Part shown: piece by piece, positions 15,810-35,484 of the stretch | How the letters are laid out: every line of letters begins with the position of its first letter | How positions within the stretch are numbered: the first letter of the stretch is position 1 | Origin: Candidatus Saccharimonadales bacterium | GTDB taxonomy: Bacteria > Patescibacteriota > Saccharimonadia > Saccharimonadales > DATKHC01 | DNA: 64,000 nucleotides | Direction: 5' to 3' | NCBI GenBank assembly: GCA_035510465.1 | Contig: DATKHC010000021.1 | Location: 66,876-130,875, forward strand | The notes under the pieces: generated by a model | Database searches by the model: none | Seen by the model: only the letters and a program-made list of their open reading frames with translations | Told to the model about the DNA's origin: nothing | Made by a program: the position numbers and the translations under genes

Positions 15810-15986
15810 TTCTGTCTGTATTTATCTTGGTTTCTGATACCGCTAAGAGCTCATGTTAATTCTACCCTATATCAGATTTGCCAGAACGTCAACTCCGTAA
15901 GTTTTTTTCTTGGGGTTGAGCCTTTATTTTGTACCACCAGTTGACTCACTTTAGCTCTTCTCCGGTCTTTTCTTCCAATTTTTGAA

Positions 15987-16358
15987 CTATTTAGTTTCTA
16001 CAATTAACAACTGGTTGCCATCTGGGTCATTAAGACTAAACCACTTTACCCCGGAACCAGGACCATATAAGTCATCTGTTACTTCACCAGCACCTGCTGG
16101 AGCAAACTGTTTATGTGCCTCTTGAATATCTGGACTAGACACATAAAGTTTCACGGTGCCTGGTTTCATGTTTTCGTGTGTAGTCGTTAGAGTCATTGAA
16201 GTGCCGCCCCCGGGAAGTTCCAACGACACCCAATGCTTGTCGCCTTGACCATAATCCGTAGTCACTTTAAAGCCTAACTTAGTTTCATAGAACTCCTTTG
16301 ATTTAGCCATGTCACTTACGGCCATGCTAAGCATTATCAATTTATCTAGTGATTGCAT
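15987..16358 (-). CDS. VOC/glyoxalase-bleomycin resistance family protein (cassette)
   Basis: 123 aa with KSKEFYETKLGFKV...WFSLNDPDGNQLLIVE, a typical VOC beta-alpha-beta-beta-beta module. Confidence 0.8.
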   Translation of the reverse strand: MQSLDKLIMLSMAVSDMAKSKEFYETKLGFKVTTDYGQGDKHWVSLELPGGGTSMTLTTTHENMKPGTVKLYVSSPDIQEAHKQFAPAGAGEVTDDLYGPGSGVKWFSLNDPDGNQLLIVETK

Positions 16359-16430
16359 ATTGTTACTCCTTGTTGCATTTAAGATTAGGTAATACGATCG
16401 CCTATCTAGTTATCATATCAAACGATAAAG

Positions 16431-16467
16431 GCTATGTTTGGCTGAGGGTTGAGTTGCTATTCCGTAC
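16431..16467 (+). repeat. Array repeat copy (variant with 4-nt insertion)
   Basis: GCTATGTTTGGCTGAGGGTTGAGTTGCTATTCCGTAC. Confidence 0.7.
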
Positions 16468-16682
16468 TAGCTAGTGCCAAGAAGTCTATCCAGTCTACCT
16501 TGGTTACCTGCAATAGATGCTTGAAGTTTGGCAGCCTCTTCCGTGTCAGTTGTCTGACCTAGCATGCGGGATTGGAAGTCAATTATTTCTTGTAGGGCTT
16601 CTGGGTTGTTTAGCGTAGTCTCTGATATCCATCTTACATATTCATCACTTGGAGACATTGGTTTTTGGGGAGACCCTTCCAT
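16467..16682 (-). CDS. Hypothetical 71-aa protein (cassette)
   Basis: ORF bounded by array repeats at 16431 and 16711. I recognise no family. Confidence 0.4.
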   Translation of the reverse strand: MEGSPQKPMSPSDEYVRWISETTLNNPEALQEIIDFQSRMLGQTTDTEEAAKLQASIAGNQGRLDRLLGTS

Positions 16683-16710
16683 AACAACTAGTATATCAAT
16701 ATCATAAAAA

Positions 16711-16754
16711 GCTTATGAGTGGCTGGGAATCGTCTCCAGACCGATTTCAGAACC
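16711..16754 (+). repeat. Array repeat copy, type II right half
   Basis: GCTTATGAGTGGCTGGGAATCGTCTCCAGACCGATTTCAGAACC. Confidence 0.75.
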
Positions 16755-16775
16755 ATTTAGGCATTACAGCTATGT

Positions 16776-17477
16776 CTAAGAAAAGACAAATAGCTGAAAA
16801 ATAGGTTTGTCTTTGTGCCTAATATTGTATGAATCTTCTTCAATAAACCATTCTGGTGTTATAACCGGGATATGTGAGACTAGAGTTAGCCCAGCCGACT
16901 TAGCTCTTTTTATTGTAATGTCTGGTTTACGAATAATATCGTAAATTACTCCCAGTCCTTCACCGTAATCTGTTCTTGCTGCAACTTCTCCTGGACCGAT
17001 AATTTCTGTTTCTACTTTATAATCTCGTCTCTGTCGAGTAAATAAATCAAAGTCACCGGTTACTATAAGTATCTTTCCGCCTCTTTTTAAGAGTGATTTA
17101 AGCTTTAGAAATGCATTTTCTAAGTCTGATATATGCTCTAGTACCATAGTTGCAATAACGAAATCGAAGTGCTCAGTTGTCTTAAATTCCTGCAATGAAG
17201 ATCTGTAGAATTTAATATCTGAGTATTTAGCTTCAACGTACTTTATGTTTTTGATTGACGGATCAATACCTACTACATCTGTTCCAAGTTTAGCCAATTC
17301 TCCACAAAGCCAACCCTCACCAAACCCAACATCAAGGATTTTTTTACCATCTACATTCTTAAGTTTCGGTAATAAGTTTTCCGCGAACATTCTCCTAACA
17401 GCAGCTCCCTGGGTAAACTTAATTTCTTCAGAATCATACTGAAGGACATTAATGGCTTTGTCTCTAATACTTTTCAT
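16776..17477 (-). CDS. Class I SAM-dependent methyltransferase (cassette)
   Basis: ILDVGFGEGWLCGELAKLGTDVVGIDPS is SAM-binding motif I; FDFVIATMVLEHI is motif II/III. Confidence 0.85.
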   Translation of the reverse strand: MKSIRDKAINVLQYDSEEIKFTQGAAVRRMFAENLLPKLKNVDGKKILDVGFGEGWLCGELAKLGTDVVGIDPSIKNIKYVEAKYSDIKFYRSSLQEFKTTEHFDFVIATMVLEHISDLENAFLKLKSLLKRGGKILIVTGDFDLFTRQRRDYKVETEIIGPGEVAARTDYGEGLGVIYDIIRKPDITIKRAKSAGLTLVSHIPVITPEWFIEEDSYNIRHKDKPIFQLFVFS

Positions 17478-17525
17478 ATATAAAAAGTATAGGTTATTTT
17501 AGGTACATAAGTGAAAACCTATACT

Positions 17526-17560
17526 GCTTATGTCTATAGTCTCCAGACCGATTTCCGTAC
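17526..17560 (+). repeat. Array repeat copy, type II right half, left arm replaced
   Basis: GCTTATGTCTATAGTCTCCAGACCGATTTCCGTAC. Confidence 0.7.
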
Positions 17561-17572
17561 CACCCAGCCTTA

Positions 17573-17601
17573 TTGACAAACAACGACACAGTGCTTATAA
17601 T
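17573..17601 (+). promoter_or_regulatory. Sigma70-type promoter of the mazEF-like cassette (leaderless geometry)
   Basis: TTGACA (17573-17578), 17-nt spacer, TATAAT (17596-17601); ATG 9 nt downstream; no SD. Confidence 0.7.
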
Positions 17602-17610
17602 GTAATTACA

Positions 17611-34146: not shown

Positions 34147-34174
34147 GGCTGGGAATCGAGGTTGAGTTCCGTAC
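34145..34174 (+). repeat. Array repeat copy, right core with alternative left module
   Basis: TTGGCTGGGAATCGAGGTTGAGTTCCGTAC. Confidence 0.9.
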
Positions 34175-34177
34175 GGT

Positions 34178-34681
34178 TTACGCAGAGGTGGGGAGATCAG
34201 AGAGAAAGCCTCGCTGAGGGGCAAATGCAAGTCCGTGCTGTTCTTGTTCTTGCAATCGCACCAGAGCAAGATCTAAATCTGTCCCCGTAAAGCCGAATTG
34301 ACCGTTTGGTGCGCCACCTTCGTTCACTTTGCCGGTGAGACCAACTTGAGCTTCTGAATAATCCAACGGGTTACCAGTTTTAGGATCAACCTTAAAAAGG
34401 TTAACACTCTTTTCCAGATTGCCTGGTCGAACATTAAAAGCGAAAGGTAGCTCGGCTGAAGCAGCAGCTCTAATACCATCTGCAGTTGCTTTGAAACGAG
34501 CGGACATCTCATCGTCCGGATTAGCAGAAAGACGTTCCCAGGACCCAGCTTCGGCTTCTAACGCATCTAGATAATACCTAACGAGGCCAGTTTCCAGTAC
34601 AAGACGAGTATTTTCGTCAAGAACGGAAACCTGATCTTCGGTTAATACTTCTTTTGAACTGTTGCCGGATGTCTCTGACAT
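34178..34681 (-). CDS. Hypothetical ~167-aa protein (cassette)
   Basis: The minus-strand promoter TTGACT-18-TACAAT (34720-34691) abuts the tracked ATG (34690). The ATG at 34681, 9 nt after the -10, is therefore the likelier, leaderless start. Confidence 0.5.
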   Translation of the reverse strand: MSETSGNSSKEVLTEDQVSVLDENTRLVLETGLVRYYLDALEAEAGSWERLSANPDDEMSARFKATADGIRAAASAELPFAFNVRPGNLEKSVNLFKVDPKTGNPLDYSEAQVGLTGKVNEGGAPNGQFGFTGTDLDLALVRLQEQEQHGLAFAPQRGFLSDLPTSA

Positions 34682-34690
34682 AATAGTCAT

Positions 34691-34720
34691 ATTGTAACAT
34701 AATTAGTATACTATAGTCAA
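34691..34720 (-). promoter_or_regulatory. Promoter of cassette 34178..34681 (leaderless geometry)
   Basis: On the minus strand: TTGACT, 18-nt spacer, (TGt)TACAAT; second ATG 9 nt downstream. Confidence 0.6.
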
Positions 34721-34731
34721 ACAAAGGGTGA

Positions 34732-34776
34732 GGGATTCGAACTGAGGTGAGCATAAATGTTCTCAGAGGTGAAATT
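34732..34776 (+). repeat. Second repeat family (alternative left module), copy C
   Basis: GGGATTCGAACTGAGGTGAGCATAAATGTTCTCAGAGGTGAAATT. Confidence 0.6.
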
Positions 34777-34806
34777 TTGGCTGGGAATTGAAGTTGAGTT
34801 CCGTAC
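34777..34806 (+). repeat. Array repeat copy, right core with alternative left module
   Basis: TTGGCTGGGAATTGAAGTTGAGTTCCGTAC. Confidence 0.9.
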
Positions 34807-34834
34807 GCTTGGAAGCCAACGATCATTTCTATAT

Positions 34835-35413
34835 CTAATTGGGTGAAAGTTCTTCCTGAGGTCTAGGTTCAGGAATTCCAAACCTTTCTCTCAGGCTCAA
34901 CAATCTAGCATCAAAGGCTTCTTCCAAATCAAAGTCATATTGCTCAGATTGTAGAAATGCACTATGGGTTAACATGTTGGAGGCACCAGCTATTGAAGAT
35001 GGTCTATCTTTTAATGACTGGTCCCGTGTGCTGGCATGCTCCAGATCGTGCAAATTTGAGGCTATATGGCCCATTCCGACTACAAAAGCCGCTAAATGCA
35101 TAGGAACATCTCCTAGTCTATCTGCTGTAGTTCTCATTAATAAATCGCCGCCAGTTGTTGTTCTTCCCTCGGGAATACCTAGTCCAGCCCAGCGCGTCAA
35201 TCGTAAGGCATAATGTATGGAGTCAGGAGCAATAGCTCCCCTAACTGTCTCTGGATCAGTGAAATCTTTTCTTATTAGATCTTTTACTAGATGTTTTAGG
35301 ACGTGTCCGGCATTAGCTTCAAACCCATTTGGTTCTTGTTCCCATCCTTCTTGAGTAACATCATAAACGTATAACTTATCGCATAGGACTTCTAGTTGTG
35401 GCACCGTTAACAT
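34835..35413 (-). CDS. Hypothetical 192-aa protein (cassette)
   Basis: ORF directly behind minus-strand TTGTGA-17-TAAGAT (35448-35420), with 6 nt to the ATG. Confidence 0.5.
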   Translation of the reverse strand: MLTVPQLEVLCDKLYVYDVTQEGWEQEPNGFEANAGHVLKHLVKDLIRKDFTDPETVRGAIAPDSIHYALRLTRWAGLGIPEGRTTTGGDLLMRTTADRLGDVPMHLAAFVVGMGHIASNLHDLEHASTRDQSLKDRPSSIAGASNMLTHSAFLQSEQYDFDLEEAFDARLLSLRERFGIPEPRPQEELSPN

Positions 35414-35419
35414 ATTCTT

Positions 35420-35448
35420 ATCTTAATTTAAGTTAATATCTATCACAA
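35420..35448 (-). promoter_or_regulatory. Promoter of cassette 34835..35413 (leaderless geometry)
   Basis: On the minus strand: TTGTGA, 17-nt spacer, TAAGAT; ATG 6 nt downstream. Confidence 0.5.
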
Positions 35449-35457
35449 GCATAACCA

Positions 35458-35484
35458 CTTTGGCTGGGGTTTGGAGATTCGAAT
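35458..35484 (+). repeat. Terminal degenerate array repeat copy
   Basis: CTTTGGCTGGGGTTTGGAGATTCGAAT; only the left half is conserved. It lies 37 nt from the stop of the LysM-CHAP core gene. Confidence 0.5.

Follow-up and report, generated by a model that had tools for sequence, protein, structure and literature searches.

Co-oriented repeats in a Saccharimonadales gene array as putative recombination sites derived from the 3' end of tRNA-Gln

About 20 kb of a Candidatus Saccharimonadales genome (assembly GCA_035510465.1, contig DATKHC010000021.1) are divided into small gene units by a repeat that always points the same way, and the locus raises the question of what this repeat is and which enzyme moves the units that it separates. 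The stretch analysed, hereafter the window, covers 64,000 nt of the contig (positions 66,876 to 130,875). An earlier note, made from the letters alone, had described an integron-like array without an integron integrase and had proposed that two IS110-family elements might service the exchange of cassettes. On our results, the 3' end of tRNA-Gln very probably gave rise to the repeat, which serves as an attachment (att) site for site-specific recombination, and the locus grew there by accretion into an array. To the fuller statement, that a family of large serine recombinases (LSRs) moves recombinase-less units in trans in the manner of composite islands of the staphylococcal cassette chromosome (SCC), we would assign a probability of roughly 0.6. 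The structure and clustering of the sites, the reassortment of their arms around the core and the precise integration of LSR and IS110 elements are directly supported, and from these we infer the enzyme that moves the cassettes.

The repeat is confined to one part of the window. With up to 3 mismatches allowed, its 17-nt core, GAGGTTGAGTTCCGTAC, is matched 14 times from 18187 to 34806, where chance would give 0.14, and 14/14 of the matches lie on the + strand. A profile made from the copies and run over the window recovered 14 sites with scores of 30–47 bits (one of 17 bits) and weak sites at 16447, 16719, 33555 and 35454; it gave no credible repeat outside 16.4–35.5 kb and none on the − strand. 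The scatter typical of repetitive extragenic palindromic (REP) or bacterial interspersed mosaic elements is likewise not seen, with 0 copies in the 44 kb of flanking core DNA and 0 on the − strand. Co-orientation of this kind has a two-sided probability of 1.2e-4 if 14 copies are counted and of 4e-6 if 19 are. On reading the sequence back, we found the copies at 22168 and 30922 to be identical over 39 nt. The earlier note was thus right that the copies are real, clustered, missing from the core blocks on either side and strictly co-oriented despite genes on both strands. Its list of copies stood in larger part: 11 are intact and 2 are split by IS110 elements, whereas 6 are degenerate or internally deleted (Table 1) and the one at 35458 is not a standard copy, being a tRNA fragment. 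Among its weak candidates, 14201 is the 3' fragment of another tRNA, 15909 is unconvincing and 26690 (GTTTATGCTTATCGTAC) may be a deletion remnant. The decay of the sites is polar, the leftmost 5/5 being degenerate (p = 5e-4; Spearman rho 0.57, p = 0.011), which fits the entry of new units at the tRNA end.

In its layout, the repeat has a left arm, (AAAC)GCTTATGC, followed by the invariant core TTGGCTGG, a variable middle and the distal motif GAGTTCCG(T/A)AC. Three types keep these ends and vary the middle: TTGGCTGGGAATYGAGGTTGAGTTCCGTAC in type 1, TTGGCTGGGCATCCAGWSCGAGTTCCGAAC in type 2 and TTGGCTGGGCATAGGCTATGTCACAGGTTCAGAAC in type 3. The core is the reverse complement of the tRNA-Gln 3' end, CCAGCCAA, which spans the acceptor end, the discriminator G, the encoded CCA and one more base. 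The spacing from core to distal motif, counted from the end of TGGCTG to the end of ...TTC(N)G(A/T)AC, is quantised: it is 18 nt in 3 genes and 4 fragments of tRNA-Gln, 23 nt throughout types 1 and 2 (~30 sites) and 28 nt in type 3, apart from one degenerate copy with 27 nt.

The earlier note had taken the modularity of the repeat, with variable left modules and a constant right core, as the mark of a fixed exchange point, but had overlooked that this point is the 3' end of a tRNA-Gln. Related loci (labelled L001 and so on) bring out both aspects. In L008, a canonical repeat and one open reading frame (ORF) are followed by a minus-strand tRNA-Gln(ttg), whose 3' end reads TGGCTGGGACGGAGGGATTTGAAC on the + strand and which is preceded by the same 44-nt module, module L, as the window copies at 34145 and 34777 and the copy at L007:1266. 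In L015, the usual left arm (GCTTATG) is fused directly to a tRNA-Gln(ctg) at the end of the array, aaaccGCTTATGGCTGGGGATGAGGGATTCGAACC. Both left arms, GCTTATGC and module L, are therefore found joined to the standard right arm as well as to a genuine tRNA body. All four of these combinations exist (4/4), with the junction always at TGGCTGG, the reverse complement of the tRNA's CCAGCCA; such a pattern is what reciprocal, site-specific crossing over at the core gives rise to. The window array itself ends on the right in a 3' fragment of tRNA-Gln, TTGGCTGGGGTTTGGAGATTCGAA. It has this fragment only, and an intact tRNA-Gln stands at the end of the array or element in L008, L015, L017 and L021. 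The native tRNA-Gln locus in relatives adjoins metK and/or mgsA. Neither ARAGORN (no complete tRNA) nor Rfam (no relevant match at gathering thresholds, or at E<=10 on 13.9–36 kb) gave anything relevant on the window; the link to the tRNA is visible solely via the related loci.

Module L merits a description of its own. This conserved alternative left arm of ~44 nt occurs at 34101-34144, 34733-34776 and 28761-28803 in the window and at L007:1228-1270 and L008:583-629; it starts with a T-loop-like GGGATTCGAAC, resembling the T-arm of tRNA-Gln without its acceptor end, and closes with CTCAGAGGTGAAATAT. It looks like a degenerate tRNA-Gln fragment followed by a 27-nt spacer, that is, an almost empty unit. 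Two other ways of seeing the repeat were tried and set aside: as a complete mimic of the T-arm and acceptor it fails, in that pairing is lost beyond TGGCTGGG-AT-GAGG and the T-loop is not canonical, and a comparison by eye showed no resemblance to dif/Xer-type sites.

A scan of genome contigs with a type 1 24-mer retrieved the repeat from a single locus, L001 (OY969420.1), and a metagenome scan retrieved it from five short contigs (L004-L008); it is also present in L012, L013 and L015, which were found via IS110 homologues. Viral contigs gave 0 matches. The repeat is 87-100% identical over 29-48 nt between the window and these loci, which have nothing else in common with it beyond IS110: no cassette protein is shared between arrays, an all-vs-all blastp of the ORFs having returned only IS110 and the LSR element described below. 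Within each related contig the copies are again co-oriented, and in L008 and L015 they are linked to tRNA-Gln. Exact-protein look-ups also yielded Logan contigs from SRR8676596/7 that are colinear with the window, 100% identical to it and broken at repeats; this colinearity is evidence neither for nor against the shuffling of cassettes. For the LysM-CHAP protein, the look-up returned no record. Their ends fall at or near repeats, exactly at 16749 in L002/L003 and, as estimated from gene positions, at ~16726 and ~22197 in L010 and at ~34150 in L011. As repeats break short-read assemblies, and most IS110 relatives sit on 1-2 kb contigs, such arrays are probably broken up, lost and hence under-represented among metagenome-assembled genomes (MAGs) of the candidate phyla radiation (CPR). 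We found no description of them in the literature on integrons, attC or serine recombinases of Saccharibacteria/Patescibacteria.

The related loci further point to a recombinase that uses the core. In five independent cases (L012, L013, L017, L018 and L020), an LSR-encoding element of 3.7-7.7 kb lies exactly at it, with a common junction plan (a slash marks the boundary): ...TTGGCTG/P' arm ... LSR ... P arm-TTGGCTG(G)/target. Integration was into an intact tRNA-Gln in L017, into tRNA-Gln fragments in L013 and L018 and into a type 2 array repeat in L012; L020 follows the same junction logic, and L021 has the tRNA-side junction only. Contig Ga0645786_1245 holds two copies of a ~3.7-kb element that codes for a helix-turn-helix (HTH) protein and a 565-aa LSR with Resolvase, Recombinase and Zn_ribbon_recom domains, one intact (L013) and one frameshifted (L012). 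In L013, attL reads GCTTATGCTT, the IS110 element, then GGCTG/CACAAAGCAGGGTCAACTCAAAC, and attR reads ...AAATCCTGCTTGGCTG/GTCTCGACGGATTCGAACC, the right side being the tRNA fragment; in L012, attL reads ...AAATATTGGCTG/CACAAAGCAGGGG and attR ...AAATCCTACTTGGCTG/GGCATCCAGTCCGAGTTCCGAAC, the right side being the type 2 repeat. The LSR genes of L017 and L021 overlap, with their 3' ends and in antisense, an intact tRNA-Gln(ctg), and the other end of the L017 element, at 3940, reads TTGGCTG/CAAGACGGAGGGTCAACTCAAAC. The reconstructed attP, CCTGCTTGGCTGCACAAAGCAGG, is pseudo-palindromic with the dyad CCTGCTT/AAGCAGG. It is in the related loci, and not in the window, that the hallmarks of LSR attachment are thus seen, namely five insertions flanked by TTGGCTG and a pseudo-palindromic attP. 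From the junctions, the crossover dinucleotide would be the TG at the right end of the shared core. About 19 orthologues of the LSR exist, at 53-81% identity to it.

One of these cases comes close to the window. L018/L019 derive from SRR8676596/7, the runs that also yielded contigs 100% identical to the window, and here the LSR element stands between a second co-oriented type 1 array (copies at 666, 1322, 3964 and 5259) and a tRNA-Gln fragment. The accession of its LSR, HUD06434.1, is 764-776 numbers away from those of the window proteins HUD07198.1 (Obg, 100% identical) and HUD07210.1, so that HUD06434.1 probably belongs to the same MAG as the window, a placement with which the numbers are compatible without proving it. 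The earlier statement that IS110 enzymes are the only recombinases therefore holds within the window but not for the system at large, in which an LSR family integrates at the core of related arrays and is represented in the very same samples.

The arms of the LSR elements may also bear on the spacing of the sites. The P' arms end in AAAC at 23 nt. According to Van Duyne and colleagues, attP half-sites of serine integrases reportedly place the zinc-ribbon motif ~5 bp further out than attB half-sites do; if this rule applies here, the array repeats might carry a P-type and the tRNA a B-type right half-site, which we take as a lead.

Three further features of the LSR loci were noted. The LSR ORF stops just past the tRNA-Gln (L017:11647-11725 and L021:11650-11743), with its last ~25 codons coming from the target; once circular (attP), the element would draw this tail from its P' arm instead, which could amount to an integration-dependent switch of the C-terminus. 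A non-coding, hairpin-rich stretch of ~300 nt follows the P' arm (L013:1357-1665 and L012:4806-5004, 79% identity) and could be a promoter of the element, a regulatory region or an RNA. Finally, L020 encodes a second serine recombinase of 434 aa (2626-3930), 700 nt from a tRNA-Gln 3' fragment (4615) and within one array region with its 568-aa LSR.

Both IS110 elements of the window, IS-A and IS-B, show DEDD_Tnp_IS110 and Transposase_20 domains in Pfam searches, a CT core on both sides and a non-coding end that bears predicted guides; that they target the repeat, as previously noticed, is borne out by their insertion points and these guides. IS-A is inserted at the CT of GCTTGG-CT-GGGAAT. IS-B, like the copies in L012, L013 and L015, uses the CT of GCTTATG-CT-TGGCTG, 4 nt left of the IS-A register. 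We aligned the left ends (window 20240-20508 and 31858-32120; L013:109-384; L015:7407-7673): that of IS-A contains ...CGCTTGGCT... and ...ATTCCCAGC..., and those of IS-B, L013 and L015 contain ...GCTTATGCT... and ...CGCCAAGC.... The pair GCTTGGCT/ATTCCCAG of IS-A is thereby replaced with GCTTATGCT/CCAAGC in the other three, and CTACTAGGT, present in all left ends, is the element's own right end. Elements of the IS621 type are IS110 recombinases guided by a bridge RNA, and by alignment the putative guides covary with the 4-nt change of register as expected of such enzymes. Guides for the repeat and for its own right end are what a parasite of the site would carry, and because the cassettes have no IS-like ends, we regard IS110 as such a parasite. 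We found 259 relatives of these elements, nearly all on 1-2 kb contigs.

The sites delimit 19 units of 243-1059 nt, with one exception of 4629 nt. Most hold one gene or one toxin–antitoxin (TA) pair, and one holds a small operon. By Pfam, the payload comprises VOC, methyltransferase, MazEF, BrnT/BrnA, Fic/Doc, an FMN_bind-ApbE-reductase operon, VIT1, EamA, an M15 peptidase, a low-molecular-weight phosphatase, GT2 and the two IS110 transposases; many ORFs belong to no family. Both the cassette-like make-up of the units and their typical cassette payload had been correctly described beforehand. The units are compact, stop codons and sites being 3-28 nt apart, and their genes lie on either strand (8 units +, 10 −), so that no common Pc promoter can serve them. 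The further claim that most units have their own promoter found no backing, a consensus scan having returned 41 promoter-like sites against 48.5 expected. With regard to transcription, a -35-like TTCCCA can be read on the opposite strand of the repeat, ~17 nt upstream of -10-like hexamers that belong to the cassettes (16701-16729 on the − strand, and at other copies), and minus-strand cassette genes start just 24-48 nt from the next repeat; the repeat may therefore supply part of their promoters. The single long unit contains GTTTATGCTTATCGTAC, a left arm joined to a CGTAC end with the core and middle apparently deleted, which suggests that this unit was once subdivided.

The gene order AlaS-FtsA-x-RuvX-MltG-LysM/CHAP-Obg-ExoI is conserved in L009, where LysM-CHAP adjoins obg with no repeat, no tRNA and neither the glycosyl-hydrolase-like nor the VOC gene between them. 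Accordingly, the whole of 14.2-35.5 kb in the window has the appearance of an insertion between two tRNA fragments: on its left, on the + strand, that of another tRNA, which may be the att scar of a different integration event that brought in the glycosyl-hydrolase-like and VOC genes, and on its right that of tRNA-Gln. The L009 locus has two peculiarities: its obg/LysM-CHAP intergenic region (9856-10000) is a near-perfect 145-nt palindrome, and its Obg (10001-11689) reaches 562 aa through an internal duplication, two segments of which match 13539-13664 of the window.

Table 1. Coordinates of the features between 14.2 and 35.5 kb of the window. Class refers to the repeat copies as read back.
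Position	Strand	Feature	Class	Evidence or remark
14220..14245	+	tRNA 3' fragment, non-Gln: T-loop, T-stem, acceptor, G, CCA (GTTCGAATCCCTTCCTCCCCGCCA)		read directly
14313-15809	-	secreted glycosyl-hydrolase-like gene		Pfam; inside insertion, left of first recognisable repeat
15987-16358	-	VOC/glyoxalase gene		Pfam; inside insertion, left of first recognisable repeat
16431..16467	+	repeat copy, TGGCTG core, 23-nt right arm	degenerate	profile, read-back
16711..16753	+	repeat copy, type 3 spacing, 28-nt right arm ending TTTCAGAAC	degenerate	
17526..17560	+	left arm GCTTATG + right arm, core deleted	degenerate	
18174..18203	+	copy with internal deletion	degenerate	
19167..19190	+	remnant, left arm + core-like stretch only	degenerate	
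19711..19748	+	type 1 copy	intact	
20227..20239	+	left half of copy split by IS-A	IS110-split	
20240..21471	+	IS-A (IS110 family), 315-aa transposase 20509-21456, 269-nt non-coding left end		Pfam
21472..21497	+	right half of copy split by IS-A	IS110-split	
22168..22206	+	type 1 copy	intact	identical to copy at 30922
22707..22743	+	type 1 copy	intact	
22744..27372		4.6-kb unit: membrane ORF, FMN_bind-ApbE-ferric-reductase-like operon, VIT1, DoxX-like ORF		Pfam
26690-26706		possible site deletion remnant inside 4.6-kb unit (GTTTATGCTTATCGTAC)		
27373..27402	+	type 1 copy, unrelated left arm	intact	
27774..27807	+	type 1 copy	intact	
28835..28864	+	type 1 copy, unrelated left arm	intact	preceded by degenerate module L (28761-28803)
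29924..29961	+	type 1 copy	intact	
30432..30471	+	type 1 copy, diverged	intact	profile, 30.6 bits
30922..30960	+	type 1 copy	intact	
31849..31857	+	left part of copy split by IS-B	IS110-split	
31858..33083	+	IS-B (IS110 family), transposase 32121-33068		Pfam
33084..33114	+	right part of copy split by IS-B	IS110-split	
33541..33577	+	repeat copy	degenerate	
34101..34174	+	module L (44 nt, contains T-loop-like GGATTCGAG), then type 1 core + right arm	intact (34145)	
34733..34806	+	second module L, then type 1 core + right arm	intact (34777)	
35458..35483	-	terminal tRNA-Gln 3' fragment, reverse complement TTCGAATCTCCAAACCCCAGCCAAAG, core TTGGCTGG, 18-nt spacing	tRNA fragment	

Taken together, we propose the following. 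The repeat is most probably a double-stranded att site whose ancestor was the 3' end of tRNA-Gln, with which it still has the crossover core in common, and 16.4-35.5 kb most probably form an accretion array in which one co-oriented att copy delimits each of the 19 units. Units that have no recombinase would be inserted, and probably excised, in trans by an LSR, likely HUD06434.1. Insertion would take place preferentially at the tRNA-proximal site, as in SCC composite islands, with an integron-like outcome. The IS110 elements would be RNA-guided parasites of the conserved left arm and core rather than the engine of exchange.

Several observations weigh against this proposal. No cassette was found in two different contexts, and neither a circular form nor a deletion junction was found; the 64-kb window contains no recombinase other than IS110. 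What places the LSR and the window in one genome is a shared sample and near accession numbers, and tetranucleotide composition does not discriminate in comparing the LSR contig with the window genome. The P and P' arms of the LSR elements were not found in the window, which means that the cassettes cannot be mere decay products of these elements; the 23-nt spacing agrees with the P' arm through a weak motif (ACTCAAAC), chosen post hoc. Canonical LSRs recombine attP with attB and not like sites. As the internal sites are alike, insertion by the LSR requires either unusual, Ccr-like rules or cassette sites that function as attP. No intact tRNA-Gln stands beside the window array, and the empty site is read from synteny alone in L009, a distant relative (57% GC vs 42%).

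The alternatives differ in what they make of the same sites. An ordinary integron, or a cluster of attC sites lacking an integrase (CALIN), is suggested by the cassette-like layout with its TA payload, which recalls sedentary integrons, and by the fit of the type 1 GTTGAGT to GTTRRRY. The fit noticed in the earlier note is genuine for type 1, where it has no RYYYAAC partner, but it is specific to that type and missing from types 2 and 3. Pfam showed no IntI or Phage_integrase domain among all array ORFs and neighbouring genes, nor did the array ORFs or flanking genes tested include a tyrosine or serine recombinase; folding of the three repeat types as single-stranded DNA, on both strands, gave no attC-like structure and none better than shuffled sequences (z -1.3 to +0.1). 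The cassette ORFs do not share the common orientation of integron cassettes, as the strand counts given above show. A REP- or terminator-type intergenic repeat fares no better, with strict clustering and co-orientation of the copies, no relevant Rfam match, no terminator-like site coinciding with a repeat and no enrichment of such sites. Hence, we consider this whole class of explanations hardly tenable, as had the earlier note, which saw no tyrosine recombinase in or beside the array, for the classical integron and the terminator; the DNA-level recombination-site role that it had claimed is supported, and, without a hairpin fold or a terminator, the site most likely acts as duplex DNA. The exchange of cassettes by bridge-RNA-guided IS110 (DEDD) recombinases, as the earlier note had proposed, would account for the two copies within the repeat, for left-end guides that match it and for the short contigs on which the relatives lie, as expected if these sit in repeats. 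However, the partner that the guides give the repeat is the right end of the IS itself (CTACTAGGT), no cassette has IS-like ends, and the CT used for insertion varies between copies (that of GGCTGG or that of TGCTT), whereas the exchange of arms happens at one place. Insertion of IS110 elements into cassette recombination sites is a known parasitic habit, as in the IS1111-attC group, and we judge IS110-serviced exchange very unlikely.

A less distant rival is an unseen tyrosine recombinase, an IntI analogue encoded elsewhere, which would move the cassettes and leave the LSR elements and IS110s as mere parasites. The inverted arms of types 2 and 3, GCTTATGC/GCATAGGC (or GCAT), around the invariant 8-bp TTGGCTGG as a possible overlap region would suit such an enzyme; tRNA 3' ends are the usual targets of tyrosine integrases, and recombination between like sites, which the uniformity of the array sites calls for, is what tyrosine enzymes carry out. 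We nonetheless find it rather doubtful: the called genes of ~120 kb of distinct array-adjacent DNA include no Phage_integrase-type gene, nor do the window ORFs tested, the same ~120 kb hold six serine-recombinase genes or pseudogenes, and type 1, that of the window itself, has a weak dyad. The sites could also be inert scars of successive integrations that targeted tRNA-Gln, with RecA-dependent shuffling between the 39-nt repeats, helped by natural transformation. Direct repeats of ~40 nt suffice for homologous deletion and duplication, the sites decay toward one end, tRNA fragments bound the region, and LSR elements do decay in place, as the frameshifted copy in L012 shows. Against this, scars would be attL/attR hybrids with arms of the element, of which none was found in the window; the units are compact up to their stop codons; and arm exchange is sharply localised at the core, which is unexpected for homologous recombination. 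Further, sites that are 87-100% identical across unrelated samples with differing surroundings speak for selection on the site. We hold the scar explanation to be unlikely.

Coming back to the LSR, a more far-reaching form of the proposal would see in the array a Saccharimonadales analogue of the integron run by this enzyme, in which the tRNA-Gln 3' end plays the part of attI and double-stranded sites of ~40 bp that of attC, single-gene cassettes are captured and released in trans, and IS110 guides have evolved for the same site. In that form, the sites in the role of attC would have a right half-site 5 bp (or 10 bp) longer than that of the tRNA. We put this forward tentatively, as a possibility that falls short of even odds.

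CPR/Patescibacteria genomes measure <1 Mb, and their acquisition of accessory genes is poorly understood. Here, ~20 kb, or roughly 2% of such a genome, form a modular store of TA, cell-envelope, transporter and orphan genes around one site. If a serine recombinase does run the array, it would be an independent invention of the integron principle with double-stranded sites and a tRNA anchor, and the sites would provide natural orthogonal att variants (three arm lengths, several middles) for LSRs, which are widely used in genome engineering. The IS110 elements offer a clean natural case of apparent guide reprogramming within a single att site, with a 4-nt shift of target and matching changes of the guides.

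Among known systems, SCC may be compared first. In staphylococci, Ccr large serine recombinases act on an attB at the 3' end of rlmH/orfX. The likeness lies in the integration of circular DNA, by an LSR, into the 3' end of a conserved housekeeping gene, in insertions that pile up in tandem, in recombinase-less units among autonomous ones and in co-oriented direct repeats with the attachment core between units. In contrast to SCC, tRNA-Gln is the anchor here, most units consist of a single gene and measure 0.4-1 kb as against 3-60 kb, the site is ~40 bp long with a variable middle and quantised arm lengths, and the recombinase family, which would act on the cassettes, is unrelated by name to Ccr. 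Tycheposon islands of Prochlorococcus, which are said to use tyrosine recombinases and to consist of kilobase-long elements, and tRNA-linked islands in general share with the array the attachment at a tRNA end, co-oriented partial-tRNA repeats, a streamlined genome and cargo-only units beside recombinase-bearing ones in a hypervariable island; unlike tycheposons, the present array consists of single-gene units with very uniform internal sites, and the recombinase found is an LSR. The IS110 elements match those of the IS1111-attC and IS621 types in their DEDD transposase, CT core, insertion in one orientation into a repeated recombination site, and a non-coding end with target and donor guides, here predicted from sequence; their target, however, is a tRNA-Gln-derived Saccharimonadales att site and not attC or REP. 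The pdif modules of Acinetobacter plasmids, which are moved by XerC/XerD, are comparable in their small size, short sites, frequent TA or resistance genes and lack of a recombinase of their own, but pdif sites are 28-bp Xer sites of alternating orientation, whereas those of the array are co-oriented, ~40 bp long and tRNA-derived. With integrons, finally, the array shares small cassettes with one co-oriented site each, a payload of many orphan genes and TA pairs, a primary site at one end (tRNA-Gln here, attI there) away from which site quality decays, and the insertion of IS110-family elements into the sites; it differs in having no IntI, no attC hairpins and no R''/R' boxes, and in that its associated recombinase is a serine enzyme. 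The array thus resembles an integron in function, and SCC composite and tRNA-linked islands in its enzymology and anchoring.

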